64,000 nt of DNA from Acidobacteriota bacterium (GTDB lineage: Bacteria; Acidobacteriota; Vicinamibacteria; Vicinamibacterales; JAENWD01): NCBI GenBank assembly GCA_046735235.1, contig JBKPSY010000027.1:2389-66388 (forward strand), read 5' to 3'. Below the pieces are notes generated by a model, which saw only the letters and a program-made list of their open reading frames with translations, ran no database searches and had not been told where the DNA came from. The translations under genes and the position numbers were made by a program. This document shows, one piece after another, positions 1-60,627 of the stretch (position 1 is the first letter of the stretch; every line of letters begins with the position of its first letter).

Positions 1-14
1 TGTACGGACCGGGG

Positions 15-11531: not shown

Positions 11532-11564
11532 CCCCCGCCTTCGCGCTCCGGCGCTTCGGCGAGG

Positions 11565-11596
11565 CAAGCCCGATGGAACTTCGCTATGCGGGCTTG
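11565..11596. terminator. stem-loop between convergent pcrA and the lipoprotein gene (possible bidirectional terminator)
   Basis: CAAGCCCG ... CGGGCTTG, an 8-bp stem with a 16-nt loop. It includes the lipoprotein TAG stop. There is no clear U-tract. Confidence 0.3.
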
Positions 11597-12297
11597 ACCG
11601 ACGCGACGATCCAGCGCCCGGTGACTGCCTTGCCGCTCTGGTCCTTCGCCTTCGCACGCATCAGGACGGCCTTGAGGTTCTTCGTGGTCGGCGGGCCGTT
11701 CGGCGGGCGGACGCTGGCCGCCACCAACACTTCCTTCGTCGCCATCTCGACGTCGAGCGTGGTCGCATCCACGGTTGCGCCGTTCGGTCGCGACAGGCTC
11801 AGCTCGGCCATGCCGCGCGCGTCGCTCAGCTTGCGCTGCGCGTCTGACACGGCCTTGCGCTTGTCGTTGCCTTCCTGGACCCATTTGTCCCAGGACGACT
11901 TCAACGCCTGGTCCTTCGGCGGAATCGGCTTGTTCTCGGCCTCGAGCTTTGCGAACCGCGCGATGGCCGCGGAGTTGGCGTTGTAGAACTCGCGACGCTT
12001 GGTGGTGGCCTCGGTGTCGGCAGCCTTCGCGTCTTCGATGTCCTTGACGTACTGCTTCAGAGGAACGGGCGCCACCTTCTCATCGGTCACGCTGGTGACG
12101 TCGAAGCTCTCGACGACTCCTTCGGTGCGCGGGTCGAAGGTGGCGGTCGCGAAGTTGCCCAGCGTGAGGTCGTCCCTCAGCCGCGAGGCGCGGAAGAAAT
12201 CACCGAGCAGTTTCTTTTCCGAGGAACCCGAGCACCCGGCTGCAAACGCAAGGACTGCGGCAACGAGCACGAGTCCCGTCCTCCAGCGCCGTGGCAT
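11584..12297 (-). CDS. hypothetical lipoprotein
   Basis: 237 aa with a signal peptide ending in the lipobox LAFAAGC. I recognise no family. Confidence 0.6.
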   Translation of the reverse strand: MPRRWRTGLVLVAAVLAFAAGCSGSSEKKLLGDFFRASRLRDDLTLGNFATATFDPRTEGVVESFDVTSVTDEKVAPVPLKQYVKDIEDAKAADTEATTKRREFYNANSAAIARFAKLEAENKPIPPKDQALKSSWDKWVQEGNDKRKAVSDAQRKLSDARGMAELSLSRPNGATVDATTLDVEMATKEVLVAASVRPPNGPPTTKNLKAVLMRAKAKDQSGKAVTGRWIVASVKPA

Positions 12298-46130: not shown

Positions 46131-46258
46131 GGGGAAATGGGAAAGCGGAAAATAGCGAATAGGGAATACCGAATAGGGAATACCGAATAGGAATAGGGAA
46201 AGCCGCACCGAGTGGCGGCTCCGTGCCTTGTCTCCCTATTCGCTATTCCCTATTTCCC
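46131..46258. repeat. AT-richer hairpin with tandem GAATAGGGAATACC units
   Basis: The left arm is GGGAAATGGGAAAGCGGAAAATAGCGAATAGGGAATACCGAATAGGGAATACCGAATAGGAATAGGGA. The right arm TCTCCCTATTCGCTATTCCCTATTTCCC contains the GT2 stop codon. There is a central AGCCGC...GCGGCT mini-hairpin. Confidence 0.7.
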
Positions 46259-47571
46259 AACCGGCTCCAGAGGAGCGCGGGTCGAGTGAGGAAGTACTCG
46301 ACCGGGCCGACCACGATCAGGTTGAAGAGCGCCGTGGGGCGCGCGTCGCGGCCGGGATCCGCAGACAGCAGCAGCGCGCTCGTCGCAATCGTTCCGCTGC
46401 CGAGCGCGACGATGAAGATGACGAGCAAGAGCTGGCCGCCGGTAATCACCCCGAGCGGCACGGCTGCTGCTACCAGCACGAGCGAAGCGAGCTCGATCCA
46501 GGGAGCAACAACGCGGTTGAAGGCGTACCGCGGGAAGTCCAGCAGGCCGAGCCGACCCAGCCGCGGATTGAAGGCCAGGCCGCGGTGCCGCCACAACACC
46601 CCGAACGGCACATGCCCGGCGGTCACCATGCGCGCCCGCGCGTCGAGAGGCTCGACGGTTCCTACCGGTTCGGTGACGTGAATGATCCGATAGCGCTGGC
46701 GGTCGCCGCCGTAATGCCGATGCAGACGAAACGTCATGTCTGCGTGCACGTTGGCTGTGTCTGATGCGAAGCCGCCGGCCTCGATGATCGAATCGCGCCG
46801 CCAGATCGTGAAGCCGGGGCACCCGCCCGGGGGCAGGTCCAGCCGTCGCCGGCCGACCGTCAGCAACCGCGTGCGCGCGGCTGCGAGGTACCGCGCCGCG
46901 GCCATCAGGCCTGTCGGCGCCTGGCCGTCGAGCGTCGCGGCCACGGTCTCGATCGGCGTCACCGTCATGTTCGTCGTCACGCCAACGACGAGCGAGGGGT
47001 CCTCGAGGGCGGCCTGCATCGTCTCGACGAGCGCGTCCGGGTCGTAGGCCGACCCTGCATCGACAATACACGCGTAGCGATAGCGCGCGAGGTTGATGCC
47101 GCAATTGAGGCTGTCGCCTTCGGTCGTGGCCGGCTGCTCCACGACGATCAGGTGGGGCGCCGACTGGCTGCGATAGATCGTGCCCACCGGACCCGTCGGC
47201 AGCGATCGCCGGTAGAACAGCTCACCCGGGCGCAAGTCGAGATCCGACCTGAGCGTTGCCAGCGTGGCCGACGCGCCGCTCACCACGACGATCAGCTCCA
47301 ACTCCGGATACCGGAAGGCCATGAGCCGACGGACGACGGCAGCGGGATTGGAGATCTCGCCATGAATCGGCAGCACGAGGCTCACGGGGATCGTGAATCG
47401 CGAGGTCGCCAGCACCTCGTCGTCCACCGGGCGATACCGAAGCCGCCGCCGGCGCGCGATGCTGAGTGCGGTGCGCAACAGCAGGAACGGCGCGCCGATG
47501 CCGTACGCGCAGATGAGCACGAGCACGGCGAGCGACGTCATCCAGGCCAGGGGAGACGTCGTCGGGCTCAT
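46243..47571 (-). CDS. membrane-embedded family 2 glycosyltransferase (processive synthase-like)
   Basis: 442 aa from the ATG at 47571 (ATGA overlap with the upstream HEAT gene). An N-terminal TM helix, a GT-A domain (IPVSLVLPIHGE...CIVDAGS) and C-terminal TM helices. Confidence 0.75.
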   Translation of the reverse strand: MSPTTSPLAWMTSLAVLVLICAYGIGAPFLLLRTALSIARRRRLRYRPVDDEVLATSRFTIPVSLVLPIHGEISNPAAVVRRLMAFRYPELELIVVVSGASATLATLRSDLDLRPGELFYRRSLPTGPVGTIYRSQSAPHLIVVEQPATTEGDSLNCGINLARYRYACIVDAGSAYDPDALVETMQAALEDPSLVVGVTTNMTVTPIETVAATLDGQAPTGLMAAARYLAAARTRLLTVGRRRLDLPPGGCPGFTIWRRDSIIEAGGFASDTANVHADMTFRLHRHYGGDRQRYRIIHVTEPVGTVEPLDARARMVTAGHVPFGVLWRHRGLAFNPRLGRLGLLDFPRYAFNRVVAPWIELASLVLVAAAVPLGVITGGQLLLVIFIVALGSGTIATSALLLSADPGRDARPTALFNLIVVGPVEYFLTRPALLWSRLGNRE

Positions 47572-48974
47572 GATCGCACCTTGGTCGGCTCGAGGCCGAG
47601 GCTGGAGAGCAGCGTCCGCACCCGAGGCCGCACGCTCTCGTCCACGCGCTCGAGGAGCGCCTCGGTCATGCGCGTGCCGCCGGCCGCCGCGATTTTCCGC
47701 AGCATCTCCACCTTGCTCGCGCTCGGACGGGACGTGGCGGCCTCCAGCACGATCAGGCTGTCGAGGACGCCGATGTTCTGGAGCACCTCCGCGGCGCCAT
47801 TTCGCGCGAACGCATCCGCATGATCGAGATATGGCACGAGCACCGACCACACCTCTTCGCCCATCTGCTGGAGCGACTCTCGTGCCGCGAGACGGACCCA
47901 CCACTCCCGGTCGGCCAGCAGCGGTGCGATCTGATCCGCGGTGTCCGTGGCATTGGCCGCGGCGAGCGCGCGGGCCGCGTGCGCCCGGACGTACCAGATC
48001 GGGTCGGCGAGCAGGGGCTGCACGGCGGGTACGGCGCCCGCGCCATCGAGCTCCGCGAGCGTGGCGACAGCCGCCTTGCGGACCAGCGGCGACGGATCCT
48101 TCGTGAGCAGCGCGACGTCGCGCTCGCCGCCCGGCATACGATGACGCGACACGAGCGTCGCGCCCCAGTAGCGCACCTGGGCGTCAGGGTGATGCAGCAG
48201 CGGGACGATCGCGTCAGCGATCGACGCGGGCGACTGATCGATGTACGTGGCGATACGAGAGGGCGAGTACTTGCGGTCCTTGAGGGCGCCGATGAGAGCG
48301 AGGCCCGCGGCGCGATCGTCGAGGCGCCCGAGAACGGCCAGGCTGGCGCCGACGATCTCGGGGTCGTCGTCCAGCGCACGCGCGAGGATTGGCACGAGCG
48401 GCGCGGCTGCGGAGCCCGCGGCCAGCACGCGCATCGCGGCGATTCGTCGCCAGTTGTCCTTCGGGGGCCGGCGTTCGCCCGCCAGCGACTCGAGCGCCGG
48501 ACGGCCGATGCGCGCCACGGCAGCCTCGGCGACGATGCGATCCAGCGAGGCGCGGTGCGTGGTCCCGGACGCGAGCGGCAGCACGACGTCGTCGGCCAGC
48601 GTCGCCATCAGCGAGACGACGGCGGTGCGCAATTCTTCGTCCTGCCGATCCGCGACGGTGATGGCCGCAAAAGCGCGGCGGGCCCGGCCGATGGCGAGGG
48701 CCCGCTGGCCGTTTCTGACGCCTGTGATGAGCAGGTACACGCTGGCCGCTGCCCACGTGACGAACACGAGGACGAACGCAGGCACCAGCAGCACGCCGAC
48801 CAGCTGTGAGGGAGTCAACACCGCTTGTCCGGGTTTTCGGCCGCGCGCGTCAGCGGCAATAGGGACGCCGGCCGGAAAACGGGAGCGGTCGATTCGGCTG
48901 GGCGGGGCCCGTTCCCTCCGGTCAAGGCAACGGAGGCCATACCGAATCGACCGCGCCACCGCAGGGAGGGCCAT
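47568..48974 (-). CDS. HEAT-repeat protein with N-terminal TM helix
   Basis: 468 aa with repeated LLxDPxxxVRxxAAxAL units (at least 6). The TM segment is LVGVLLVPAFVLVFVTWAAASVYLLI. The start is uncertain. Confidence 0.7.
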   Translation of the reverse strand: MALPAVARSIRYGLRCLDRRERAPPSRIDRSRFPAGVPIAADARGRKPGQAVLTPSQLVGVLLVPAFVLVFVTWAAASVYLLITGVRNGQRALAIGRARRAFAAITVADRQDEELRTAVVSLMATLADDVVLPLASGTTHRASLDRIVAEAAVARIGRPALESLAGERRPPKDNWRRIAAMRVLAAGSAAAPLVPILARALDDDPEIVGASLAVLGRLDDRAAGLALIGALKDRKYSPSRIATYIDQSPASIADAIVPLLHHPDAQVRYWGATLVSRHRMPGGERDVALLTKDPSPLVRKAAVATLAELDGAGAVPAVQPLLADPIWYVRAHAARALAAANATDTADQIAPLLADREWWVRLAARESLQQMGEEVWSVLVPYLDHADAFARNGAAEVLQNIGVLDSLIVLEAATSRPSASKVEMLRKIAAAGGTRMTEALLERVDESVRPRVRTLLSSLGLEPTKVRS

Positions 48975-48996
48975 CCCTGCAACGCGCGAGCTCCGA

Positions 48997-49572
48997 CTAG
49001 CGTCCCTGGAGCTGGTTGACGACTCGGTAGTTGTGCGCGACGACCATCGCGGTCACGGCGTTGGCCGCGACCATCGAGACGATGGCGCCCATCTTGTTTC
49101 CGCCGCGCCACATCTTCTCCGACATCAGGATCGTGGTGGCCGCGATGCCTGCCTTCACCGCCATCATCGTCGCCTGGTTCTTGGCCAGCGGCTTCATGAT
49201 CGGGTTGGCTTCATGCGCGCCGAGCGAGATCGCCGTGAAGGTGGACCGCACGTCCATGGCCTGCAGACCGGCCTGCATCGCGTAAAGCGCGGGAAGCGCG
49301 ATCGGACGCGACGGCGCTTCCTTGGGCGTCACGAACGCGTGAAAGAACTTCGGCCCCGTCGACTCGGCGGGCGAGGCGCTTTCCGCCTTCGTCGCGACGG
49401 CGGCGGCCGAGAGCGTCACGGAGGCGGGCACGGGAGCGAGCGGCACGGCGCTGTAGAGCACCGCGCTCGAGGCGGTGTTGGCGGCAAGGAGGTCCTGCGC
49501 CGCTGCGGGCGACTGCGAAAATCCGATGCCAACAAGAACTGCTGCGGCAACGCTGGGGAGCGAGCGAACCAT
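48997..49572 (-). CDS. secreted/membrane protein with C-terminal DUF5658-like domain
   Basis: 191 aa with a signal peptide (..SPAAAQD) and a C-terminal hydrophobic domain with an HEANP motif reminiscent of DUF5658. Confidence 0.5.
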   Translation of the reverse strand: MVRSLPSVAAAVLVGIGFSQSPAAAQDLLAANTASSAVLYSAVPLAPVPASVTLSAAAVATKAESASPAESTGPKFFHAFVTPKEAPSRPIALPALYAMQAGLQAMDVRSTFTAISLGAHEANPIMKPLAKNQATMMAVKAGIAATTILMSEKMWRGGNKMGAIVSMVAANAVTAMVVAHNYRVVNQLQGR

Positions 49573-49838
49573 GACGACACCTCTTCCGGGCTGGGCGGCC
49601 CTCGTGTGGTCGCGTCGCCTCCGGACTCATCGTGCGAGTCCGGCCGGGAGGCCACGCGAACGTTGCCGGAAGACAGGGCAAGCGAAGTGCCCATGGCGGC
49701 GGATCGCTTAAGGCGTTGTGTAGCAGCCGGTTCCTGCATCGTGTGCGGTACCGCACATCGCGCGGAGATCACAGATCTCGCACTCGCGATCTCAGTTGTG
49801 TCGTGGAGTGGAATGACGGCCGCGCGGTCGCGCGATGG

Positions 49839-50588
49839 TCAGGCGCGTGCGCGCTGTGGCTCGCCGGGCTTGAGACCGAGCAGGCGCTTGAGGCGATCGA
49901 CGAGAGAAGTCTGCCCGGCCCCGGGATTTCCGGCTTCCACCAGAAGATCGAGACACGCGGCCACCGAGGGCACACCGCCAATGCCGAGACGCCGCGCGCT
50001 GGCGGGGACGGCGTTCTGATCGCCGCGCCAGATCAGGATCGCACGCGCCTTCGAATCGATCGCGATGTCGAGGCAGTTTTCAGGGCGATCGTCGACGACG
50101 ACGTCGAGCTCGAGCGACGCGGCGATCTTGCCGCGTGACGTCGCCACGACGAACACCGAAGGCATCTCGAAGCCCTTCGCGCGCAGCCAGCGCTGACTCT
50201 GGATCTGGACGATGTCGCCGTCGCTCTTCGGACGGCTGGTGAGGAAAATGACTTCCCAACGCTCGGCGCGCGCCGTGTCCGCGAGCCGCTTCACGATGCC
50301 GGGCTCGGTCTCGTCGAGCGATTCCCAGAAGTTCGGCGTGCGCTTGACCTCCGCCCAGAGCTGACGTTCCTGGCGCGACGTCAGCGAGAGCGACGACGGA
50401 GACACCTCGCCCGGTTCGCGATCGGCGTCCGCTGCGTCGGATGGGGGCGACGCATCAACCACCTGCGGCGTGGCCTCGAGATCCGCGTCGGGGAAACTCA
50501 CGCGGGCCTGACGGACCAGCGCGCCGTTCAGGTCGGCGAGGACTCCATCGAGATCGAAGCCGACGCGGAGGGGCATGGGGTGGCGCAA
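49839..50588 (-). CDS. HAD-superfamily hydrolase (5'-nucleotidase-like)
   Basis: 249 aa with HAD motif I, FDLDGVLADL, and a later TSRP motif. Confidence 0.65.
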   Translation of the reverse strand: MRHPMPLRVGFDLDGVLADLNGALVRQARVSFPDADLEATPQVVDASPPSDAADADREPGEVSPSSLSLTSRQERQLWAEVKRTPNFWESLDETEPGIVKRLADTARAERWEVIFLTSRPKSDGDIVQIQSQRWLRAKGFEMPSVFVVATSRGKIAASLELDVVVDDRPENCLDIAIDSKARAILIWRGDQNAVPASARRLGIGGVPSVAACLDLLVEAGNPGAGQTSLVDRLKRLLGLKPGEPQRARA

Positions 50589-50663: not shown

Positions 50664-52517
50664 TCAGCGGGCCGACGAGCGGCGGGGCGTGAGATCGCTT
50701 GCGACCGCGTCGAGATCGACGCCCTGGGCCGCACAGAGGGCCCGGAACCGCCCGTCGGGCGACGCAAGGAGCGAGTTCCAGGTCCCGGATTCGACGATGC
50801 GGCCGTGGTCGAGAACGTGAATTCGATCGGCGTTCCGGATGGTCGAGAGCCGATGGGTGATCACGACGATCGTGATCTGCTCGTGAAGGCGGTCGATGGC
50901 GTCCTGGATCCGGCGCTCGTTCTCCGAGTCGAGCGAGCTGGTTGCCTCATCCAGGATCAAGATCCGGGGGCGCCGGAGAAGAGCGCGCGCCAGCGAGAGC
51001 CGCTGCCGCTCTCCGCCCGAGACGAGCACGCCGCGATCGCCGAGCACGGTCTCGAGGCCATTCGGCAACGCTTGCACGAACTCGTCGGCGGCCGCCGACC
51101 CGAGGGCGCGCCAGATGTCCTCCTCGCTAGCCCCGGGGTTCGCCCACAGGAGGTTCGCGCGCACGCTGTCGTGGAAGAGCAGCGTCTCTTGTGGCACGTA
51201 GCCGATCTGCCGACGCCACGACCGCAGCGCATCGGCGGTCAGGGGCGCACCGTCGATGGTGACCGCGCCGCCGGTGGGCGTCACCAGACCCATCAGCAGG
51301 TCGGCCATCGTGCTCTTCCCCGCGCCCGAGGGCCCGACGATGGCGATGGTCTCGCGCGCTGGCAGCGACAGGCGGACGTGGTCGAGCACGACAGGAGTGC
51401 CAGACGCGTCGTAGCTGAAGCTCAGATCGACCAGATCGATGCTGCCGACGAGAGAGATCTCACGGTGCTGATCCACCCGGGGCTCTGCCGCGGCCAGCGC
51501 TCTGGCCTCGGCCGCCGCAACGGCCTCGAAGCCCGGCAGCTCGACCACGCACGACTGCAACTTGTCGTAGAGACTCGTGACCCGCGGCACCAGGCGTGCG
51601 AAGAGAAACATCAGCAGGAAGAGCGAGGCCGCCGGCATGCCCATGACGGCGTGCGCCACGTAGACAATGACGGCGAGCAGCGCCGCCGAACCGATGTTGA
51701 GCCAGAGACGCGTATCCGCGGCCGCCGCAGCGGCCACACGTCCGACCTCGCCAACCGTGTGCGACAGGCGGCTGAACTCTTCGGCGTGACGGTCCTCGGC
51801 CCCGTACGCCTTGGCGATCTTCATGCTCTCGAGGAAGTCGCTCGTGGCGGCGTGGAGATCGTTCGAGGCCGTGAAGGATTCGTAGCCGGCCGCGCGCGCC
51901 CGAGTGAGACGGCCGCGCACCGCCAGGGCCACCAGGGCGCCGCAGCCCATTACGAGCCGGGTCATCGAGGCCGATACCCGCAGCGCCATCACGACGTAGG
52001 CCAGCGAGATGGCGATCGTCACGAGGAGATCGATCAGGTAGTACGCCGCCGAAGCAACGCCGTCGACCTTGGCCGTCAGCACCTGCAGGAACGACGAGGC
52101 GCGGTTCCTCGAGAAGTAGACCCAGGTACTTCCGGCGACGGCTCGATAGACGCGAGTCCGGAGCGCCTGGACGATGTCCTCGCGCATCCCCGTGTTCACG
52201 ACGGCCAGCCGCCGCTGCAGGAGGCCCTGCAGCGTGATGATCCCGACGTAAAGCGTGAGGACGACAGGCAGCGTCGGTTCGAGCCCCACCGCGGCGAAGC
52301 CACGGCGCAGCGTCGCCAGCAGGCTGCCGAGGGATCCCTGCTGCGCGTCGAGACCCACGAGCTGCAGGAGGGGCACGAGCAGCAACAGGCCGGCGCCTTC
52401 GAACACGCTGACGCCGACTGTCAGCACGGCACTCTCGACCGCGCGACGCGGCGAGGCAGTCAGCAGCGCGACCGCGAAGCGGCGAAGAAGCCGGAGATTC
52501 GAGGGGGACTCGCTCAC
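50664..52517 (-). CDS. ABC exporter, fused permease-ATPase (McjD-like lasso peptide export/immunity candidate)
   Basis: 617 aa with a 6-TM domain and an NBD (GPSGAGKST, VSGGERQRLSLARAL, ILILDEATS). GTGA overlap with the B2 gene stop. Confidence 0.88.
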   Translation of the reverse strand: MSESPSNLRLLRRFAVALLTASPRRAVESAVLTVGVSVFEGAGLLLLVPLLQLVGLDAQQGSLGSLLATLRRGFAAVGLEPTLPVVLTLYVGIITLQGLLQRRLAVVNTGMREDIVQALRTRVYRAVAGSTWVYFSRNRASSFLQVLTAKVDGVASAAYYLIDLLVTIAISLAYVVMALRVSASMTRLVMGCGALVALAVRGRLTRARAAGYESFTASNDLHAATSDFLESMKIAKAYGAEDRHAEEFSRLSHTVGEVGRVAAAAAADTRLWLNIGSAALLAVIVYVAHAVMGMPAASLFLLMFLFARLVPRVTSLYDKLQSCVVELPGFEAVAAAEARALAAAEPRVDQHREISLVGSIDLVDLSFSYDASGTPVVLDHVRLSLPARETIAIVGPSGAGKSTMADLLMGLVTPTGGAVTIDGAPLTADALRSWRRQIGYVPQETLLFHDSVRANLLWANPGASEEDIWRALGSAAADEFVQALPNGLETVLGDRGVLVSGGERQRLSLARALLRRPRILILDEATSSLDSENERRIQDAIDRLHEQITIVVITHRLSTIRNADRIHVLDHGRIVESGTWNSLLASPDGRFRALCAAQGVDLDAVASDLTPRRSSAR

Positions 52518-52984
52518 GATCGAATGAGAGACCCGTCAGGCGCGAAGGCGAACACCGGCACGTACTGGGAGACGGAGGTCACGGATTCTCCGGCAGGCCT
52601 GCCGTTCAACAGGACCCACGCATGGCCGATCACGTTTGCCGCGTCGTTGCGTCCCATGCCAATCACCAGTGTCGGCTCGGCGTGCCCCTCGAGGAGAAAG
52701 CGGTAGGCGATCAGCCCCCGCTCGAGGCAGTTGCCGCCGTCGCGCCACCGCACGAGACGGCAGGCCCACCTCGCGAAGACGACGACGCGCTCGTCACGAT
52801 CGGCGTCGGGCGCGAGGCGCGCGTCGCGCCAGACGAGCCGCACGAGCGATCGAATCGGCATCACACGCTTCAGCACCGGCAGAACGCACGCCCACGTCAT
52901 GATGCGGATCGCCAGCGCCACGTCGGCCAATGACGTGAACCTGGCAGCGACACGCGACACACGGGAAGGAGCGCTCGTCATCAT
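52514..52984 (-). CDS. lasso peptide biosynthesis B2 protein (transglutaminase-like Cys protease)
   Basis: 156 aa with GNCLERGLIAYRFL (catalytic Cys) and VIGHAWVLLNG (His), matching the McjB C-terminal/B2 pattern. Confidence 0.85.
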   Translation of the reverse strand: MMTSAPSRVSRVAARFTSLADVALAIRIMTWACVLPVLKRVMPIRSLVRLVWRDARLAPDADRDERVVVFARWACRLVRWRDGGNCLERGLIAYRFLLEGHAEPTLVIGMGRNDAANVIGHAWVLLNGRPAGESVTSVSQYVPVFAFAPDGSLIRS

Positions 52985-53011: not shown

Positions 53012-53926
53012 CTACGCCGACGTGGGACGAGTCACGCGAGCCGATGTCCGGAGGTTCAGCTCCGCGCCTGCGTGATCTTCGATGGCGTCGAACAGCGTGC
53101 CCGCGACCGCAAAGGACCGCTGGAAGCGCAGGCGATACGCGGGCACCGAGGCCGCCAAGTGGGCGTACGCGGTCATCAACTCCTGGTTGTAGCTCGGGAT
53201 CTTGAACGAGAGCGCGTACGCCTGCTGCAGGAGCAGCGGCAGCCGCTCAGCCACGCCGAGCTTCTCGAAGTGCGGGAGCCCTGGGCGATCGTCGTCGCCG
53301 TCGAGGACATAGACGGCACGCAGCGACAGGGGACCCGACGGCCACTCGACCGGCTCGAACGCGTGGCCGGTCTTGCCGAAGTAGTCGGCACTCGCGGGCC
53401 TGAGCCTTGCGTCGTTTCGGAGGGGGTGGAGTCGAACGCCAGCCTCTGACGACGTCGTGAACGCCAGCGTGTCGTCGCTGATCAGCCGCCAGCCTGGGCG
53501 GCGGCCCATCGCGAACGCGGTCGTCGACTTGCCGGCCAGCGTCGGCCCGGTGAAGGCGATGACGTCGCTCGTGTCGGCCGGACCAGCCGCGCTGGCGTGG
53601 ATGACCTGCCGACCCCAGAACGGGTAGATCGCAGGCAGCCAGGCGCGCTGCACGACCTCCCGAAACCAGGAGGTGTCGCTGTCCGGAAATGGAAACGCGG
53701 AAAGTTGGGGATCGAGCGCGGTGAACTGCACCGCCCCGACACTTCGCTGCGAGATCCAGTACTGCTCGCCGAGGCGGTAGCAGTGCGTCGGGAAGGTCTC
53801 AGACGGAGCTGCCGGCCAGGTGGTCAGCAGCTCCGCATCCCGTTGCAATCGATCTTGGAGCCCGGCGTACTCGATGGGCGCGTGCCATTCCATCGAAGGC
53901 TCGGCCCACGGCTCAGTGCCGAGCAT
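53012..53926 (-). CDS. HPr kinase-like P-loop protein (RiPP tailoring kinase candidate)
   Basis: About 304 aa from the ATG at 53926 (AGGGGA SD). Walker A FTGPTLAGKSTTA followed by LISDD, as in HprK C-terminal domain relatives found in lasso clusters. The track start at 54010 would overlap the peptide gene. Confidence 0.7.
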   Translation of the reverse strand: MLGTEPWAEPSMEWHAPIEYAGLQDRLQRDAELLTTWPAAPSETFPTHCYRLGEQYWISQRSVGAVQFTALDPQLSAFPFPDSDTSWFREVVQRAWLPAIYPFWGRQVIHASAAGPADTSDVIAFTGPTLAGKSTTAFAMGRRPGWRLISDDTLAFTTSSEAGVRLHPLRNDARLRPASADYFGKTGHAFEPVEWPSGPLSLRAVYVLDGDDDRPGLPHFEKLGVAERLPLLLQQAYALSFKIPSYNQELMTAYAHLAASVPAYRLRFQRSFAVAGTLFDAIEDHAGAELNLRTSARVTRPTSA

Positions 53927-53952: not shown

Positions 53953-54147
53953 CTACCGCGGAGTCGCCGGGCACGTGCCGGCGTCGATTTGCATCGCCTC
54001 GCCGCCGCACATCGACTGGCCGTCACCAAAAGTGCCGGACTTGCCGTTGGCGTTTCCCGTCCGCACGAAATCCCGCAGGTTGCCGAGCTCCTGCAACTTC
54101 GGCGAGAGCCAAAGCCGCCGCCCGTTCCCCGAAAGTGATTGCGTCAT
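53953..54147 (-). CDS. candidate lasso-type RiPP precursor peptide (64 aa)
   Basis: MTQSLSGNGRRLWLSPKLQELGNLRDFVRTGNANGKSGTFGDGQSMCGGEAMQIDAGTCPATPR. GGAGAG SD 8 nt upstream of the ATG, and high GC3 in this frame. The leader-like PxLxxxG...T motif, a Gly-rich C-terminal half with Asp/Glu and 2 Cys, and the position between the cyclase and tailoring/B2 genes all fit. Confidence 0.6.
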   Translation of the reverse strand: MTQSLSGNGRRLWLSPKLQELGNLRDFVRTGNANGKSGTFGDGQSMCGGEAMQIDAGTCPATPR

Positions 54148-54199
54148 CGTCACAGCTCTCCGTGTGCGCCCTTTGAGCGAAGGGCACCATGTCCAGCAC

Positions 54200-54266
54200 A
54201 TTCTACCGAATCTCAACCGGAACGCGGCCGTGAAACGCCGGAAACTGGCCTGAATTCTGTATTATA
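54200..54266 (-). promoter_or_regulatory. candidate dedicated promoter(s) for the precursor gene
   Basis: The minus strand reads GGTATAATAC (perfect TATAAT, plus coordinates 54261-54266). A second TAGAAT is at 54200-54205. Both lie in the 148-bp gap between the cyclase stop and the peptide ATG. Confidence 0.45.
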
Positions 54267-54295
54267 CCGGACACAGACTGTTCCCGGAGCGTCTC

Positions 54296-56188
54296 TCAGG
54301 CTCCGGCGTGGTGGGCTATCCAGCGGTCCGCGCTCATCAGGGCGTACATTTCGACCAGTCCGGTCGACAGCATCTCCCCGGTCAAGTCGAAGCGACTCGA
54401 GGCCATTTTCGGGTCGACGACACCAAGGGCCGCCAGCCGGGGGAATTCCCTGAGTTTCGGCCAGGCGGCTGCAACCCCCTTCCACAGGTTCCGCCGGTGG
54501 GTGTCAATCACGCCAGGCCCGTACACCTTTCGCTGGGAGCCAAGTTGGAGCCCGGGGAGCCGCCGATCGGCCACCGGCCGCAGCAGCCCCTTGTAGCGGG
54601 CCCCGTCGAGGAGGACCTGCGCCGGCACGGCGTTGAGAAACCGCACCAGCCGGCGGTCGTGATAGGGGCTGAGCAGCCGAAGGCCGCAGGCCGACTCGAT
54701 GTGGAAGCCCAGCTCGAACTCGTACACGAAATACGGGTTCACGACCGAGCGCTGCTCGTGGCGGTAGAAGTTCGCCGGCACCTGTCCCTTGTCTGTGAGC
54801 GACGCAGGGCGCTGGGAGAGCAGCGTGTCGCGGACGGCTTCCCGAAGCTCGAGGTCGGGGCACAGCCAATCCGGCAGCGCCGCAACGGCACGCCGACGAT
54901 GGTATTGGCTCTTCACGCCGGGCATGAGCTTCGCCGCCCATGCGTCGAGCAGCACACGAGCCCCGCCAGACCACAGGAGCGTCTCGGCAGCGGCACGCAT
55001 CGACAGGCCCCCCGTGTCGGTGTAGGAACGGACGAACCGCGTGAGTTGCCCGAGTCGCAGACGTCGCATGCTCTCAGCGGCGTACGCGTTTCCGACCGAC
55101 ACCCAGTTGTCGCCGCCCGACCCGGTCAGCAGCACCCGCACCTGCTGCGCCGCCGTGCGGCGGTAGAAAGCCATGTAGCTGCCGACCCAGTAGATCCGCG
55201 ACGGCGCCGGCAGCTCCGGCACGATGTCGAGCGACATCTCGACGTCGTTTTGCCCGCCGGTCCACTCGGCCTCCGTCATGAGGATGTGGCGCATGCCGAG
55301 GGCCGACGTGGTCGCCGTCTGCATCGGCTCCTCGCCGCCTTCGAGTGAAGCGCCGCCGCTGCGGCCCGACACCGCCGTGATGAGCGGAGTGCCGTGCGCG
55401 GTCGAATACTCGGCCGCCAGGGCCGCAATCGTCACCGAGTCGAGGCCGCCGCTGAGCATGATCCCCTGGGGATCGAGCTCCATGCATCGCGAGACCGCGT
55501 CGATGAGCGCGGGCTCGAACTGCTCGCGTACCTCCGCGGGCGTCATGTCAGGCTCGCCGTCTTCGAGCCACGGGCTGAAGTATGCGTGCTCGTGGATCGA
55601 CAGATCAGGCGCGATGCGCAGGAATCGGCCCGGAGTGAGCCGGCGGATATCCTCGAAGAATGTCTGCCCTTCCGCGGGCCACTTCGTGAGCGCTGACAGG
55701 ACGAGGGAGACGCGATTGATGCGCCTCGACACGGAACCGCTGTGGGCGATCGCCAACACGTTCGGCCCGAACAGCAACGTGCCCGACGCCGTCGCGTAGT
55801 ACGCCGGGTGATGGCCCAGCGCGTCATGGCCAAGCAGTAGTCGCGACGTTCCAGGATCCCAGATGGCGAGAAAATACGACCCGTCGAGCCGATCGAAGAC
55901 GGCCTCGCCCCACTGCGCGTACGCGGCCGCCGCAATCTGCGCGTCAGTCGCGCCGCCGTCGAGCTGGAGCGAAACCCGAAGCTCCCGCCGCTCGAACAGG
56001 TACCCGTCGAACAGCACGACGCCCGGATCGTCGGCGCGACCGAACGTCGCGATGTCTACGTCCTCCGCGGGACGGACAATCGCCAGCGGGCCGACGCGAC
56101 GCGTCCCGACTGGAAGCGTCTCAGCACTCGTGGCGGGAAAGCACGCGTACCACGTCGGGAGGGCAATCCGACCGGCGCTACTGCTCAC
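54296..56188 (-). CDS. asparagine synthetase B-like lasso peptide cyclase (C protein)
   Basis: 630 aa with the PP-loop motif LSGGLDSVTIAALAAE. The N-terminus is MSSSAGR, with no Cys2 glutaminase nucleophile, as in McjC-type cyclases. Confidence 0.85.
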   Translation of the reverse strand: MSSSAGRIALPTWYACFPATSAETLPVGTRRVGPLAIVRPAEDVDIATFGRADDPGVVLFDGYLFERRELRVSLQLDGGATDAQIAAAAYAQWGEAVFDRLDGSYFLAIWDPGTSRLLLGHDALGHHPAYYATASGTLLFGPNVLAIAHSGSVSRRINRVSLVLSALTKWPAEGQTFFEDIRRLTPGRFLRIAPDLSIHEHAYFSPWLEDGEPDMTPAEVREQFEPALIDAVSRCMELDPQGIMLSGGLDSVTIAALAAEYSTAHGTPLITAVSGRSGGASLEGGEEPMQTATTSALGMRHILMTEAEWTGGQNDVEMSLDIVPELPAPSRIYWVGSYMAFYRRTAAQQVRVLLTGSGGDNWVSVGNAYAAESMRRLRLGQLTRFVRSYTDTGGLSMRAAAETLLWSGGARVLLDAWAAKLMPGVKSQYHRRRAVAALPDWLCPDLELREAVRDTLLSQRPASLTDKGQVPANFYRHEQRSVVNPYFVYEFELGFHIESACGLRLLSPYHDRRLVRFLNAVPAQVLLDGARYKGLLRPVADRRLPGLQLGSQRKVYGPGVIDTHRRNLWKGVAAAWPKLREFPRLAALGVVDPKMASSRFDLTGEMLSTGLVEMYALMSADRWIAHHAGA

Positions 56189-56495
56189 GCGTGACCTTGT
56201 CCGCTACCGGCAGCAGCAGGCCGCCCGCCACCAGCTCGTCCAGCAGCTCGCCGACCGCGCGCGCGATCTCCTCGCCGCTCGAGTGGTACTCCTCGGCCAG
56301 GATTCGCACGATGGCGCCGCGTTCCTCGCCCTCGACTGCCAGCCCGACGATGCGAGCTCCGGTCGCGTTCAGGGCGAACATGGTCTCATCACGGAGATTC
56401 AGAATGAGCGCTTCGTCGCCGCTCGGCTTGAATACCGCGACCGGCGCGAGCAGGTATCGCGTGTGATCGGTCATTGCCGTGGACTCGTCGCTCAC
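56178..56495 (-). CDS. PqqD-family RiPP recognition element protein (B1 candidate, copy 2)
   Basis: 105 aa with ...MFALNATGARIVGLAVEGEERGAIVRILAEEY...LLDELVAGGLL, the PqqD/RRE pattern. GTGA overlap with the methyltransferase stop. Confidence 0.8.
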   Translation of the reverse strand: MSDESTAMTDHTRYLLAPVAVFKPSGDEALILNLRDETMFALNATGARIVGLAVEGEERGAIVRILAEEYHSSGEEIARAVGELLDELVAGGLLLPVADKVTREQ

Positions 56496-57613
56496 ACGTG
56501 CTGCTTGGCGACAGTCTGCACGAACCTGAGCGCCTCGGCCGGCGTGCGGTAGCGATCGGGCTGGAACGCCCGCAGCGACTGCGCGATCTCCGTCATCGTG
56601 CGTCCGCCGTCGCAGAGCGCCAGTACGTGGGCGACGGCGCGCCCCTCGTCCGACAGTTCCGGCCGGTAGTCGAGCGCCGCCTTGCGCAGCGTCGAGGCCT
56701 TCATTGGCGCTGACGCCAGGGTCGAATGCCGCTGGGCTCCAGCCTTAGCCCTCGTCGTCCACAGCCAATCCCCGTACGGCGCGCGCGTGAGCTGAAAGGC
56801 GACGCACTCGCCCTGCTCCAGGGGCATCGGCGGATCCAGGGGCAGGAACGCCAGCGACCAGTGCGACCGCGGTGCGCGCGGCGACGTTGAGAACCAGGTG
56901 TCGCCGAGCTTCGCCGAGAACCACCCGAGCCAGCCGTGACAGATCCCCGAACGCGTGACGATGCTTTCTACGGTGCTGTTGAGCGGCTCGTATTGGCTCT
57001 TATGGAAATCGATCGAGTTGATCAGGACGGGATCGGCCAGCTCGGTGAGCGCCTCGAACCCTTCGGTCCGAAAGAAGAGCGTGTTCGCGGCATACGACCG
57101 CGCGGCCCCGAGATCGACGCCGTGTTGCGGCCGCGACCACGACGCGATTTCACGCTCGTGCAACGCCTCCGCCGTGACCGGCACCACTTCCATGGCCGCG
57201 GCATCAGGAATCAGGTGGCCGCCAGGGCGGAGGAACCGGTCGCGCGCATGGAACAGCACCGGCAGCAGATCCTCGGTGAGCAGGAAGTTGCCGGTGAGGA
57301 CCGAGACGATGACGTCCACCGGCTCGGGCAACGTGACGTCCTCGATGCGGCCCTGGATGCACCGGACGACATCCTGCAGGCCGTTGGCGCGGACGTTCTC
57401 TTCGGCCAGCGCGATGATGTCCTCGGGCTCGACCAGATACACGCGCCGCGCGCCGAGACGCGCGGCCATGAGCCCGTGGACGCCGGTGCCGGCTCCGAGA
57501 TCCAGCACGACGCTGTCCGGAGTGATGGCAGCGGCGAGCGCCCGCGCATAGGCGTCGTTTCGCCACGCATCGAGCGCCATCCCGCGATGGCCTGACACGA
57601 CAACGTAGCTCAT
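56492..57613 (-). CDS. PRMT-like class I SAM methyltransferase with C-terminal RRE-like winged-helix tail
   Basis: 373 aa from the ATG at 57613. SAM motif I VLDLGAGTGVHG, an acidic VEPED, and SVLTGNFLLTEDLL, which resembles the PRMT double-E loop. The C-terminal LALCDGGRTMTEIAQSL...ALRFVQ resembles PqqD. Confidence 0.75.
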   Translation of the reverse strand: MSYVVVSGHRGMALDAWRNDAYARALAAAITPDSVVLDLGAGTGVHGLMAARLGARRVYLVEPEDIIALAEENVRANGLQDVVRCIQGRIEDVTLPEPVDVIVSVLTGNFLLTEDLLPVLFHARDRFLRPGGHLIPDAAAMEVVPVTAEALHEREIASWSRPQHGVDLGAARSYAANTLFFRTEGFEALTELADPVLINSIDFHKSQYEPLNSTVESIVTRSGICHGWLGWFSAKLGDTWFSTSPRAPRSHWSLAFLPLDPPMPLEQGECVAFQLTRAPYGDWLWTTRAKAGAQRHSTLASAPMKASTLRKAALDYRPELSDEGRAVAHVLALCDGGRTMTEIAQSLRAFQPDRYRTPAEALRFVQTVAKQHV

Positions 57614-57627
57614 GAGGCTGGCACCAT

Positions 57628-57915
57628 TCAGACCGCCAGAAACCTGAGCAGCCCGTTGCTCGTGAGCGCGTCGATCAGCCGCTCCACGTCGTCCCGCATC
57701 TGCGACGGGTCGGCGTCGAACTCCTGCAGCAGGGTCTCGTACGCCGCCTGCACCGACGGCATCGTCGTCAAAAGCTCCCACACGCGAGTTCCCACCTCGT
57801 CGAGCGTGAACGACCGCCCCGTGGCGACGTCGACCACCACGGTGATGCCGTCGACAGGACGGCTGATCACGCTGTCAGGCACGAGGAAGCGAATCCGATC
57901 AAACTCGAGCGGCAT
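57628..57915 (-). CDS. PqqD-family RiPP recognition element protein (B1 candidate, copy 1)
   Basis: 95 aa with ..FTLDEVGTRVWELLTTMPSVQAAYETLLQEFDADP...LIDALTSNGLL. Confidence 0.8.
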   Translation of the reverse strand: MPLEFDRIRFLVPDSVISRPVDGITVVVDVATGRSFTLDEVGTRVWELLTTMPSVQAAYETLLQEFDADPSQMRDDVERLIDALTSNGLLRFLAV

Positions 57916-57928
57916 GCGTCGGTGTCAC

Positions 57929-59518
57929 CTAGGGTCCGGCCTCGACGCTGACCACCGGCCAGCTCGCAGCGCGAGCGACTTCCGGCGAATCGTCGCGCAC
58001 GAACACGGAGTTGTGCTCCATCAGGTACGGCTGGGTCACGGGATGCGGCAGATAGCGATCGACGAACGTCTGGTTGGTGATGAGCATGACGTCCCAATAG
58101 CCGGCCTCGACCTGCGCGGCCTCGAACAGCTCGCGGGCGTGCCTGGCAAGGGCGGCCGACACAACCCCGATGACGAAGTCGGGCTTGTGCGCCAGCGATC
58201 GATCGACGTCGTAATGGTTGTGCCCCGTGAACGGGTTCTTCGGGTCTGGTTGCAGGTGTCCGATTTCGCGATCCACCTTCCCGAGCATGTCGAACGCCGT
58301 GCGGTGACTGAAGTACCCCATCGCGCCGGCCGCGGCCACGAGGATTGTCGCTTCCGGGCGGCTGTTACGATTGATCAGCCACGCCGCGACGACCTGGCCC
58401 TGCACGAGGCCGTTGTTGACCGCCCATCCCAGCGACTGGCGGCCGGTGATGCCCGACACCATCACCGTGGACACGAACAGCACCGTCGCCAGAACCATCG
58501 CCACGCGGCGCTCGCTTACGACCGCGATGCCGGCGGCCGCGAACACGATCAGCAGCGGCACGATCGGCGCGATGAAGCGGAAGTGAAAGAACATGTCCGC
58601 CCCGACGAGCACGATCCGCAGCGCGATGAACACGCATGTCATCAACAGGATTCGAATCCGGCGATCGCCCGACGTGACGGCGGCGGCCAGGGCGAGCACG
58701 ACGAGCGTCGGGTACGCCTGGAGGAAGCCCTTCATGTATCCAAGGCCGCTCCAGAAGAGCCCCGATCGGCCGGCGACCTTCAGGTAGTACGTGTTCGGCA
58801 GCCAGTCGCCGTAGTAGTTGATCCGGAACGTCAGGTGCACGGCGAGCGGCAGCGCTGCGAAGACGACGGCCCAGAGCCTGCGGCGGCTTCCCAGCAGGAA
58901 GCCGGCGGCGACGACGATCGCCGTCAGGTCAGCAGCGTCGCTGCGGATGATCGGCAGCAGCCCGGCGAGCAGGCACGTGACGATCGAGCATTCGCCGCGG
59001 TCCGCATCGTCGAGCGCGCGTGTGAGCGCCCACAGAAACACCACGGTGAGCAACGTCGTCTCGAAGCCGTTGACGGCCCAGTAGATCAAATCTATCGAGA
59101 GGGCCAGCGTGCCGAGCGCGGCGAGTCGCAGCCAGCCTGGCGGGCTAGCAAGCCGTCGCAACAGGCGATCCGTGAAGATGAGGATGACCACGGCGAGGCC
59201 GATGTTGATGAGCTCGACCGCCAGGGAAGTCAGACGTTCTGGCACCCCTGCAGCGTGCACCGCGGCCATCACGAACACCCATCCGAGGTTCGTGTAGCCC
59301 TCCACTCGATCTCCGGCGTTCCAGACGAGCCCCAGGCCATCGGCCAGGTTTCTCGCGTACCGCATCGAGATCATCTGGTCGTCGTCCAGGTAGTAGTAGC
59401 GCTGGTGGTCGATGACAACGGTCGCCTGCCGGATCGCCGCGAACGACACCAGCACCATGACCGCCGCCGCAACGACGAGCGGGAGCCTCGACGCGCGCGC
59501 GGGCGACGTGGACGTCAT
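57929..59518 (-). CDS. polytopic membrane protein, GT-C-like putative glycosyltransferase
   Basis: 529 aa from the ATG at 59518 (ATGA overlap with the upstream gene). About 11 or more TM helices, a first-loop acidic motif YYYLDDDQ, and a C-terminal soluble domain. Family assignment is tentative. Confidence 0.45.
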   Translation of the reverse strand: MTSTSPARASRLPLVVAAAVMVLVSFAAIRQATVVIDHQRYYYLDDDQMISMRYARNLADGLGLVWNAGDRVEGYTNLGWVFVMAAVHAAGVPERLTSLAVELINIGLAVVILIFTDRLLRRLASPPGWLRLAALGTLALSIDLIYWAVNGFETTLLTVVFLWALTRALDDADRGECSIVTCLLAGLLPIIRSDAADLTAIVVAAGFLLGSRRRLWAVVFAALPLAVHLTFRINYYGDWLPNTYYLKVAGRSGLFWSGLGYMKGFLQAYPTLVVLALAAAVTSGDRRIRILLMTCVFIALRIVLVGADMFFHFRFIAPIVPLLIVFAAAGIAVVSERRVAMVLATVLFVSTVMVSGITGRQSLGWAVNNGLVQGQVVAAWLINRNSRPEATILVAAAGAMGYFSHRTAFDMLGKVDREIGHLQPDPKNPFTGHNHYDVDRSLAHKPDFVIGVVSAALARHARELFEAAQVEAGYWDVMLITNQTFVDRYLPHPVTQPYLMEHNSVFVRDDSPEVARAASWPVVSVEAGP

Positions 59519-60627
59519 GGCTTGACCCACTTGTGCGCTCCCGTCAGGAGCCGGTGCACGTAGAGCGCCGGGAGCAGCAGCGAACCCTTCACGCCGTACC
59601 GCTCGCGGATAAAGGCCGGCGGCGGAAATGCGTGCTCGCGGATCAGGCGAAGCCGGGCACGCCACGAGCCGAGCGCCGCGAGGTCGCTGGCCAGCACCTG
59701 GCGACGCGTGAGCTGCCCCTCCAGATACCGGTGCGACGGTTCCGACGGCGCAGCCTCGGTGAGCGCTCGCTCGACGGACGCGGGTAGTGTGGCCCTCAGT
59801 TGATTGCGGGCCTGCTGAAGGCCGTCGAGGCACAGCCCGGCGACGCGTCGCTCGCACGCCAGCCGCGCGACGGCAGCCCAGCCGGCGTCGTCCAGTTGCG
59901 CGCCGAGCAGCCTGATGTCCTCCAGCCAAATCAACCGGTCGTGCCCCTGGTGATGCGCCAGCCGATGAATGCAGGCAAGGACGAGCGATGCGGGATGCGA
60001 GGGCATCCGCGCCGACGCGTCGAGTGCCGCGATCGGCAACGCGTCGAGCCAGAGCTCGTCGAAGGGCAATGAATCGGCCAGCATCTGCGGGTTCACGATC
60101 TTCCAGTGCAAGTCGATGACGTGCGAGACGCCAGTCGGATCGACGCGCTCGAAGCTCGCCTGGTGGCTCACGAACTCGCCCGACGTCATGGCATTGCTGC
60201 GCTGATATCCGGCCTCGCTCAGCGCGTGTTCGGCCGCGGCCACCTGCTCGGATGACACCAGGACGTCAGTGTCCATTCGCGGGCGGTGCCATGGGGCGCC
60301 GTACACCGAATATGCGAGCGCCGCGCCTTTCATCAACAGCGCGCGGACGCCGGCCACCGACAGCGACCGCAGCATCGACGAGAGCTCGCGCTGCTCCAGA
60401 AGGTCCCAGGCCATGGCCATCCGCGCACGGGACGCGAGCGCGGCGACGAGCGATTCCGGCGCGCCTGGCATCGTTGAGATCGCCTGCCACACAAGTCGAT
60501 CGACGCCGTGCTCGTCAGCCTCGGCGGCGAGATCGTCGACGGGGTGCTCGGCAAGCTCCCGCGCCGACACGTCGCCGCGGAGAATGCGTGCGAGCAGCCA
60601 CTCCGCGGCCAAAGGTTCAGCAGTCAC
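59515..60627 (-). CDS. uncharacterised nucleotidyltransferase family protein (NTP_transf_5 / PF14907-like)
   Basis: 370 aa with ...LLMKGAALAYSVYGAPWHRPRMDTDVLV...IDLHWKI.... This pattern is typical of the PF14907 family, which often neighbours PqqD/HprK-like genes. Confidence 0.65.
   Translation of the reverse strand: MTAEPLAAEWLLARILRGDVSARELAEHPVDDLAAEADEHGVDRLVWQAISTMPGAPESLVAALASRARMAMAWDLLEQRELSSMLRSLSVAGVRALLMKGAALAYSVYGAPWHRPRMDTDVLVSSEQVAAAEHALSEAGYQRSNAMTSGEFVSHQASFERVDPTGVSHVIDLHWKIVNPQMLADSLPFDELWLDALPIAALDASARMPSHPASLVLACIHRLAHHQGHDRLIWLEDIRLLGAQLDDAGWAAVARLACERRVAGLCLDGLQQARNQLRATLPASVERALTEAAPSEPSHRYLEGQLTRRQVLASDLAALGSWRARLRLIREHAFPPPAFIRERYGVKGSLLLPALYVHRLLTGAHKWVKP

Follow-up and report, generated by a model that had tools for sequence, protein, structure and literature searches.

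A precursor peptide family of a kinase-associated lasso-type cluster in Acidobacteriota

The precursor gene and its cluster

The window analysed here is a 64,000-nucleotide stretch of an Acidobacteriota genome of Vicinamibacterales type (contig JBKPSY010000027.1), and our subject is a small open reading frame (ORF) on its minus strand, between genes for an Asn-synthetase-like lasso cyclase and an HprK-like kinase. Judged from sequence, this ORF encodes the precursor (A) of a lasso-type, kinase-associated cluster for a peptide made on the ribosome and modified after translation (RiPP), because the same frame and the same position, cyclase then ORF then kinase, are kept in every related locus. 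The gene and its ribosome-binding site lie as follows.

53953-54147, minus strand: precursor peptide gene (A), 64 aa plus stop (ORF, third-position GC, homologues, synteny, synonymous excess)
54156-54161, minus strand: ribosome-binding site GGAGAG, 8 nt 5' of the precursor ATG (read from sequence)

Translation from the ATG at 54147-54145 to the TAG at 53955-53953 gives 64 codons, reading MTQSLSGNGRRLWLSPKLQELGNLRDFVRTGNANGKSGTFGDGQSMCGGEAMQIDAGTCPATPR, and 26 nt separate the stop from the start of the kinase-like gene (ATG 53926). GC content at codon positions 1/2/3 is 0.58/0.55/0.83, the third-position value (GC3) of the flanking genes being 0.80-0.87, and no codon-position periodicity was seen in the precursor frame across the rest of the cyclase-kinase gap (54148-54295). 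Both the gene-like coding signal and the GGAGAG site (54161-54156) reported by a first-pass annotation of this DNA are thus borne out. In a conserved 40-codon block compared between 9 loci, substitutions fall 363/301/597 over codon positions 1/2/3 and 358 of the 803 differing codons (45%) are synonymous, a pattern that indicates purifying selection on this frame. The annotation had also proposed aligning small ORFs beside orthologous cyclases; among the related loci, 19 are long enough to show neighbours, and in all 19 the precursor occupies the same slot, in the same frame, with an Asn-synthetase-like cyclase gene on one side and an HprK-like kinase gene on the other, in keeping with its candidacy as the cluster's precursor. 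It is present as one copy per locus: a second copy was sought in the window and the related loci and none was found, and no related locus holds any other conserved small ORF. We take the ORF to be a translated, selected gene and the sole candidate substrate of the cluster.

A domain scan of the ORFs at 46.2-64 kb of the window placed the following genes around it, all on the minus strand, with the cyclase (C), B2 and two PqqD genes close together on one strand with the precursor. RRE stands for RiPP recognition element.

50664-52517, minus strand: MsbA-like ABC (ATP-binding cassette) exporter (D; ABC_tran and ABC_membrane)
52514-52984, minus strand: leader peptidase B2, transglutaminase-like (NF033537 lasso_biosyn_B2, Pfam Transglut_core3)
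53012-53926, minus strand: HprK-like peptide kinase (K), a P-loop protein (BsfK alignment, weak TIGR04352 match)
54296-56188, minus strand: Asn-synthetase-like lasso cyclase (C; Pfam Asn_synthase and GATase_7)
56178-56495, minus strand: PqqD/RRE no. 2, 'mid' type, between methyltransferase and cyclase (PF05402, E=1.4e-11)
56492-57613, minus strand: PRMT/PrmA-like S-adenosylmethionine methyltransferase, 373 aa (PRMT_C, Methyltransf_25, PrmA)
57628-57915, minus strand: PqqD/RRE no. 1, 'up' type (PF05402, E=4e-17, and lasso PqqD models)
59515-60627, minus strand: NTP_transf_5 nucleotidyltransferase, BsfN/PsmN/LppN-like (PF14907, E=1e-36)

The cyclase matches the NCBIfam lasso isopeptide cyclase model at E=2.9e-34, under its curated cutoff, and begins MSSSAG..., so that it lacks the catalytic Cys2 found in true AsnB. 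The kinase shares 25% identity with BsfK over 210 aa (pairwise E=7e-6) with the H...G..x.GKS...DD motif in register, and a search for solved structures of the kinase returned nothing relevant. B2 scores 46.7 bits against NF033537 (cutoff 33) and carries the NCLER...GHAWV catalytic motifs; PqqD no. 1 is likely its B1 partner. The extra RRE suspected by the first-pass annotation is real, in that two stand-alone PqqD genes are present (57628-57915 and 56178-56495). Across the related loci, a PqqD RRE always accompanies the cyclase, peptide and kinase, a methyltransferase is found in all 18 judgeable loci that reach far enough upstream, the nucleotidyltransferase in most, and B2 in the window and 12 of 15 independent informative loci.

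Leader, spacer, module and tail of the peptide family

A search of 5.8 billion proteins returned 26 small homologues of the peptide (E = 5e-30 to 8e-10), an exhaustive profile search of 1.84 billion proteins gave 67 representatives (50% identity) at E<=1e-3, and a second search with the family profile gave 93 matches, new or overlapping with the earlier ones. The non-redundant family holds 149 distinct sequences, all unnamed or labelled 'hypothetical protein', and no Pfam or NCBIfam model, lasso precursor models included, matches it. Those genomes with a name that carry the gene are metagenome-assembled genomes of Acidobacteriota/Vicinamibacterales. Positional counts below cover the 146 members that parse into leader, spacer, module and tail; family members are cited by P numbers and related loci by L numbers. 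In the window peptide the four parts are:

54061-54111, minus strand: leader motif W13-x-x-P16-x-L18-x-x-L-G22-N-L-R-D-F-V28-R29 (YxxPxLxxxGxxxxxTx register, with Val in the Thr slot)
54046-54060, minus strand: spacer T30-G-N-A-N34, separating the canonical cleavage slot from the conserved module
54022-54045, minus strand: module G35-K36-S37-G38-T-F-G-D42, a putative macrolactam ring with S37 as putative phosphosite and D42 as putative acyl donor
53956-54021, minus strand: tail G43...R64 with G43, E50-x-M52 and the Cys pair C47/C59 (family conservation)

The family leader reads W-x-x-P-x-[L/V]-x-x-L-G-N-L-x-x-[F/L]-V-[R/Q/K], with W in 144 members and P and G22 invariant. A hidden Markov model (HMM) of the family aligns W13-R29 to the leaders of SyanA, ThcoA, citrulassin, fusilassin, LP2006, aborycin and others, SyanA being the best-scoring known precursor (E=2.7e-5, 32-sequence set). 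In this alignment the known lasso leaders end at the position of R29 and their Thr(-2) falls on V28, a slot that is V140/I5/T1 across the family. We conclude from this register that the stretch W13...V28-R29 is a lasso leader of the canonical kind, its Thr(-2) slot being filled by Val. The leader-like motif of the first-pass annotation therefore holds in part: WxxPxLxxxG is conserved, but T30, which had been read as the leader Thr, sits at a variable position. Its residue numbers are likewise correct except for the Pro, which is P16 rather than P15.

The spacer that follows is 2-9 residues long (5 in 104 members) and is never 0. Position 30 is T49/V31/A27/E15/S12 and others, and the earlier register with cleavage at T30-G31 is rejected for the family because T30 is not conserved.

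Downstream of the spacer, the length of X-K-x5-[D/E] is constant in 146 of the 149 members, and G35-D42 is the only fixed-length Gly-to-Asp unit of the peptide. The first module position, X1, is G129/N7/S7/T1/A1/I1, its non-Gly residues being mostly small; for Asn1 as a ring former there is a precedent in metanodin (PMC12670498). The module Lys (K36 in the window) is missing only in P0006, which has Gln, and two further sequences are truncated or frameshifted. Position 3 is S124/T4/P8/Y7/A2/F1 (S or T in 128 members), position 8 is D142/E4 and position 9 is G in 135. Residues 39-41, inside the module, are the most variable positions of the peptide.

Family tails run from a variable stretch to an E-x-M-type motif, present in 129 members, and then to an optional end; the shortest (P0057, P0059, P0060 and P0064, for example) have 8 residues after D42. 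Cys counts per member are 0 in 85, 2 in 57, 4 in 1 and odd in 3, and of the 9 members with Cys at module positions 5-7, 8 also have one in the tail. Because the counts are even in 142 of the 146, C47 and C59 probably form a disulfide, as the first-pass annotation had suggested. C-termini are highly variable; the window peptide ends ...TPR, and since only 11 members end in Ser, the C-terminal phosphosite of paeninodin-type peptides is not the target here, also as previously noted.

Glu-x-Met is near-invariant about 8 residues past the ring Asp (E50 at 53998-54000, M52 at 53992-53994), and K36, D42 and E50 make three conserved charged residues. By analogy, a Lys2-Glu16 salt bridge or second cross-link is conceivable, with a geometry like the link of Lys2 to the C-terminus in class V lasso peptides.

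Cleavage and ring formation

The first-pass annotation had observed that no single cleavage register combines Thr at -2, Gly/Ala/Ser/Cys at core position 1 and Asp/Glu at position 7-9, and its arithmetic is correct. From this it offered three options, namely a ring of unusual size, atypical leader recognition, or an ORF that is not the substrate. Our comparison favours atypical leader processing over a ten-residue ring or a non-substrate. One of its candidate registers, an 8-residue ring from G35 to D42 lacking Thr(-2), coincides with the fixed-length module, and family-wide this register has Thr at -2 in 1 of 146 members; the window has Ala33.

Our favoured reading, to which we give a probability of about 45%, is that the peptide would be cleaved before G35, phosphorylated on S37 by the kinase, closed into an 8-residue ring between G35 and D42, and bridged by a C47-C59 disulfide. 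An RRE would bind the WxxPxL strand of the leader, and the kinase would phosphorylate S37 (core Ser3) before leader removal, at the same site as BsfK and LppK. B1 and B2 would cut N34 / G35, with a small residue, here Ala33, at -2, and the cyclase would adenylate the side chain of D42 and join it to the alpha-amine of G35. The 22-residue tail G43-R64 would thread this ring, with the conserved E50-x-M52 near it and C47-C59 as a tail-tail disulfide in a class IV-like layout. The PRMT/PrmA-like methyltransferase, with the second RRE, would probably modify the invariant Lys36. Decoration of the phosphate may fall to the nucleotidyltransferase, and export of the product to the ABC pump. For G35-R64 as a lasso with the disulfide, a monoisotopic mass of 2909.220 Da is predicted, to which each phosphate would add 79.966 and each methyl 14.016. 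In the shortest members the 8-residue tail gives a 16-aa core, a normal lasso size.

The closest precedent for such a route is BsfA of Bradymonas sediminis, which BsfB1/B2 cut directly before GTSGNEVDG with Ile at -2 and whose core Ser3 is phosphorylated by BsfK with the leader still attached (PMC10368454, Duan et al. 2023). LppK, another kinase of the HprK-like kind, likewise acts on core Ser3, and paeninodin-like, kinase-associated leaders are marked by their WxxP (PMC13381572, Popov et al. 2026).

Several observations weigh against cleavage before G35 and a ring on its amine. The site lies at no fixed distance from the RRE-binding motif, P16 to X1 spanning 16-23 residues across the family, and it has no family-wide sequence at -2 (A104/N15/G14/S5) or -1 (N47/F25/P17/G9). 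The 17 members with Pro at -1 include the peptide of L022, where N-P precedes G-K-S in a locus that has B2, which also disposes of Pro(-1) as a marker of B2-less loci, an idea that would have favoured a cut at G35 in every locus with B2. Val28-[R/Q/K], the end point of known lasso leaders, is far better conserved than the G35 site, and residue 35 is less well conserved than Lys36, which would be unusual for a nucleophile. Since B2-less loci keep Ala33 and Val28 just as well, the conservation of these two residues is uninformative on B2 specificity and cannot locate the cut site. Three loci (L015, L016 and L018) have no B2 within 5-10 kb. Finally, the mature BsfA lasso was never observed (PMC10368454), so the anchor system itself comes without proof of ring closure.

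The two RREs bear on how the leader would be used. The PqqD proteins fall into two orthologous groups, 'up' and 'mid': the 'up' type adjoins B2 in L020 and is found with B2 in the window, L002, L005, L007, L009-L013, L020 and L021, and the 'mid' type is the one kept in the B2-less L015, L017 and L018. This distribution suggests that one RRE serves the peptidase and the other the modification cassette. A strict rule that 'up' always travels with B2 fails, as L022 has B2 with a single 'mid' RRE and the sole RRE of the B2-less L016 scores nearer 'up'. The Tyr reported to engage Thr(-2) in FusE is absent from both window RREs, its position being Ser in PqqD-1 and Met in PqqD-2, and Val in some mid-type orthologues elsewhere. 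A third RRE in the C-terminal domain of the methyltransferase was hinted at by Pfam/NCBIfam (E=0.011) and discarded; a profile-profile comparison with the cluster PqqDs gave a probability of 0.4% and E=0.16, so we count two RREs in the cluster, not three.

The conserved target of the methyltransferase is not Arg, because P0091 has no Arg at all and P0158 none past the leader motif. PrmA-type enzymes methylate Lys and alpha-amines. Since Lys36 is the only invariant basic residue of the peptide, the methyltransferase, acting with the second RRE, probably modifies it. Our literature search found no report of a PRMT/PrmA-like methyltransferase paired with lasso machinery.

The alternative that survives best, which we nevertheless rate as unlikely, is a side-chain lariat in which the cyclase would join the epsilon-amine of Lys36 to Asp42 (i, i+6). 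B1 and B2, where present, would then cut Val28-Arg29 / Thr30, so that an N-terminal extension TGNANG is kept, and B2-less relatives would make the ring on the uncleaved peptide. By arithmetic, 26 atoms make up a K(i)-D(i+6) ring, as many as in a Gly1-Glu8 lasso ring. Speaking for this model are the Lys itself, present in all of the 148 intact members except P0006 while residue 35 varies (G/N/S/T/A/I); the fixed K-to-D spacing next to a spacer of variable length that is never 0; a V/I slot followed by [RQK] in 145 of 146 members, in register with known leaders; Pro(-1) in 17 members, including that of the B2-positive L022; and the three loci reduced to methyltransferase, PqqD, C, A and K, with B2 and ABC exporter absent within 5-10 kb. 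BsfA, which has no spacer, carries Thr rather than Lys at position 2. On the other side, use of a Lys side chain is known for no Asn-synthetase-type lasso cyclase, and the class V Lys2 cross-link is made by a separate clostripain-like transpeptidase (PMC13178200). In 88% of members residue 35 is Gly, and most of the other residues found there are small; the module matches BsfA, whose cut maps directly before G1. B2 may be encoded elsewhere in the three B2-less genomes, the conservation of Lys36 could reflect a methyltransferase target or the function of the peptide, and related cores can be matured by both canonical and B-less routes, as in triculamin.

The reduced loci deserve description in their own right. 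L015 (6117-10091), L016 (2660-7159) and L018 (6677-11109) hold only methyltransferase, PqqD, cyclase, peptide and kinase genes, and no B2 or ABC exporter lies within 5-10 kb. B2 HMM scores were 1e-15 to 1e-70 in 15 other loci and returned nothing in these three, which are 18 kb (L015), 9.7 kb (L016) and 20 kb (L018) in size; the L018 cassette has an ATP-synthase operon and housekeeping genes on its flanks. From these loci one can construct a broader proposal, which we rate as unlikely: the five genes (PRMT-like methyltransferase, PqqD RRE, Asn-synthetase-like ligase, peptide and HprK-like kinase) would be a separate RiPP class making a side-chain lariat; the ligase would form a Lys(i)-Asp(i+6) side-chain macrolactam on the leader-bearing peptide, with leader removal unneeded; and the window's Vicinamibacterales lineage would have gained B1/B2, the ABC exporter and the nucleotidyltransferase as add-ons. 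If it were true, the window product would carry a TGNANG stub ahead of the ring and, were the tail to thread as well, would be a two-tailed lariat, a topology so far undescribed.

In L015 further genes follow the cassette: at 10158-11944 it adds a 2-oxoglutarate/Fe(II) (2OG-Fe(II)) oxygenase, a second PqqD unrelated to the 'up' and 'mid' types and a second HprK-like kinase, which matches TIGR04352 at 1.5e-15, and glycosyltransferases and NTP_transf_5 come after these genes. The locus may be a two-kinase, 'HPr-rel-A'-like elaboration. The cyclases called short in L015 (7533-8959, 429 aa) and L019 (8695-9876, 393 aa) match the window cyclase in two pieces and are probably frameshifts or assembly errors, not truncated enzymes.

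A ring from G43 to E50, also listed by the first-pass annotation, is very unlikely. It would follow a 42-residue leader and give a core GQSMCGGEAMQIDAGTC... whose ring has 8 residues and is tied to the tail by the disulfide C47-C59, in a class III-like layout. G43 and E50 are nearly invariant, 113 of the 146 members have the spacing of 8, and cores of 17-22 aa with Cys5...Cys17 resemble a class III lasso, a layout comparable to that of BI-32169. The ring fails as a family feature, however, because the remaining 33 members either have a spacing of 2-10 or lack the Glu, and because 8 residues after D42, as in P0057, P0059, P0060 and P0064, are too few for ring plus tail. In addition, its -2 position would be residue 41, among the most variable, C47 is absent in more than half of the family, and the fixed-length K36/S37/D42 module would be left unexplained.

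Still less probable is an over-sized ring, either from the alpha-amine of T30 to D42 (13 residues) after a cut at R29, or the ten-residue G41...E50 ring that the earlier annotation derived from a T39-F40 cut. The canonical leader register does point to R29 / T30, and the G41-E50 arithmetic is correct. The ten-residue ring fails because residues 39-41, T39 among them, are the most variable of the peptide; residue 30 is variable too, and with a spacer of 2-9 residues the ring from residue 30 would range in size from 10 to 17 among close relatives. Rings of more than 9 residues are unable to trap a tail, and in known systems a one-residue change of ring size cripples production (PMC13352647).

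The idea that the reading frame arose by chance, or serves regulation or immunity as a small protein, the real precursor lying elsewhere, agrees with the lack of any Pfam or NCBIfam match and with its label of hypothetical protein in every source, but is scarcely credible against 149 distinct sequences conserved under purifying selection, a constant slot, an RRE-binding motif and the absence of any other conserved small ORF from all related loci.

Genomic setting and comparison with known systems

Two features upstream of the precursor recur when the window is aligned with L002, L005, L007 and L009-L014.

54200-54205, minus strand: -10-like hexamer TAGAAT, about 55 nt upstream of the precursor ATG (cross-locus alignment)
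54257-54276, minus strand: imperfect palindrome CTGTGTCC-N-ATACAG, upstream of the -10-like box, a candidate regulator site

TA(G/C/A)(A/G)AT aligns in 9 of the 10 loci, seven of which have (T)TGC before it, and TGT(A/G)TCC...(T)CATACA(C/G)A is kept in all 10 aligned upstream regions. The palindrome takes the form TGT[A/G]TCC-N5-[T]CATACA, with the -10-like box about 50 nt downstream of it. A scan of the cyclase-kinase gap for consensus sigma-70 promoters and terminators returned nothing, the -10-like box being missed because a -35 match is absent. Conservation of the palindrome and the TAGAAT box across loci suggests that the precursor has a regulated promoter of its own within the operon.

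The cluster's wider surroundings in the window (46243-50588 and 60648-63354) include Wzy-like, geranylgeranyl-reductase-like, HEAT-repeat and DUF5658 genes. Wzy_C O-antigen-ligase-like proteins, geranylgeranyl-reductase-like FAD oxidoreductases, DUF5658, HEAT-repeat and PilZ proteins and sigma-54 activators recur as neighbours in the window, L002, L019, L020 and L021. Given this recurrence, we read the cluster as sitting in an exopolysaccharide-type locus, like the paeninodin-like and LPP (linear polyphosphorylated peptide) clusters of Bacillota. That such clusters lie in the exopolysaccharide loci of soil Acidobacteriota, which are abundant and mostly uncultured, hints that their role in physiology is something other than antibiosis. 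Between PqqD no. 1 and the nucleotidyltransferase gene there is also a long minus-strand ORF (57929-59929) with a faint Alg9-like/GT-C match (E=0.008); its start overlaps the NTP_transf_5 gene, it failed the codon-position GC filter of the gene survey (GC3>0.76, GC2<0.58), and L005 has a sulfatase in its place.

Our full-text literature search found no description of this peptide family or of lasso clusters of Vicinamibacterales. Tools for finding lasso precursors lean on Thr(-2), a fixed leader-core distance and Gly1...Asp/Glu7-9. The family offers a natural series in the distance from RRE motif to ring module (16-23 residues), which makes the old question of site choice by B1/B2 and the cyclase directly testable, and it includes relatives that have no leader peptidase. 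Were the invariant Lys indeed the nucleophile, the chemistry of Asn-synthetase-type cyclases would be extended and a new topology added.

Among known systems, the bsf cluster is similar in having a kinase, split B1/B2, C, D and a nucleotidyltransferase. BsfA and the window peptide both lack Thr(-2) and have an Ile/Val-type residue in that slot, the BsfA core start G-x-S-G-x-x-x-D-G is echoed by G35-K-S-G-T-F-G-D-G, and the kinases share H..G..G.GKS..DD at 25% identity. In contrast, the Ile-Arg slot abuts Gly1 in BsfA and is separated from the module by 5 residues in the window (2-9 in the family), the Thr at position 2 of BsfA corresponds to an invariant Lys here, and the PRMT-like methyltransferase and second RRE are absent from bsf. 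Direct homology to BsfA was considered and set aside: BLAST gave no significant match, the family HMM match is weak (E=0.0085), and the likeness is at the level of motifs. The Acidobacteriaceae precursors with Ile/Val(-2) described by Duan et al. end ...YQADE and are a different family.

Paeninodin-type systems (paeninodin, pseudomycoidin, ThcoA and SyanA) share the WxxP leader, HprK-like kinase, NTP_transf_5 and MsbA-like exporter, as well as their location within polysaccharide loci. They differ in having Thr(-2), a leader motif 12 residues from the cut site and phosphorylation of a C-terminal Ser, a residue found in just 11 of 146 members here. LPP systems (PMC13381572) have in common with ours an RRE-guided HprK-like kinase, core Ser3 phosphorylation, two RREs in mixed clusters and exopolysaccharide loci, but use a SipW-like signal peptidase, a YxxP leader and no cyclase. 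In loci of the window family a cyclase is present every time, and no SpI/signal-peptidase domain was found among the genes examined.

Class V lasso peptides (triculamin-like, such as gelatinamin and lariocidin B; PMC13178200) resemble the favoured product in an 8-residue ring on Asp8 followed by Gly, in ring Lys2 as a functional handle, and in related cores that are matured by canonical and B-less pathways (triculamin; bioRxiv 10.64898/2026.07.03.736388). Their Lys2, however, is joined to the C-terminus by a clostripain-like transpeptidase, and no clostripain-like peptidase was found among the window ORFs at 46.2-64 kb or the called genes of related loci. Their tails have no sequence similarity to the window family, and B-less triculamin has an N-terminal core and a follower peptide, whereas the window family keeps leader and RRE.

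The HPr-rel-A system (TIGR04352/TIGR04353/TIGR04355) is, by its model descriptions, associated with polysaccharide and exosortase loci. It resembles ours in pairing an HprK-related kinase with a PqqD-family chaperone in polysaccharide-type neighbourhoods, but membership is not established because all matches are far under the curated cutoffs. On the sequence evidence overall, the system resembles a BsfA-type or paeninodin-type kinase-associated lasso cluster, yet it departs from each of the named families compared here in a defining feature.

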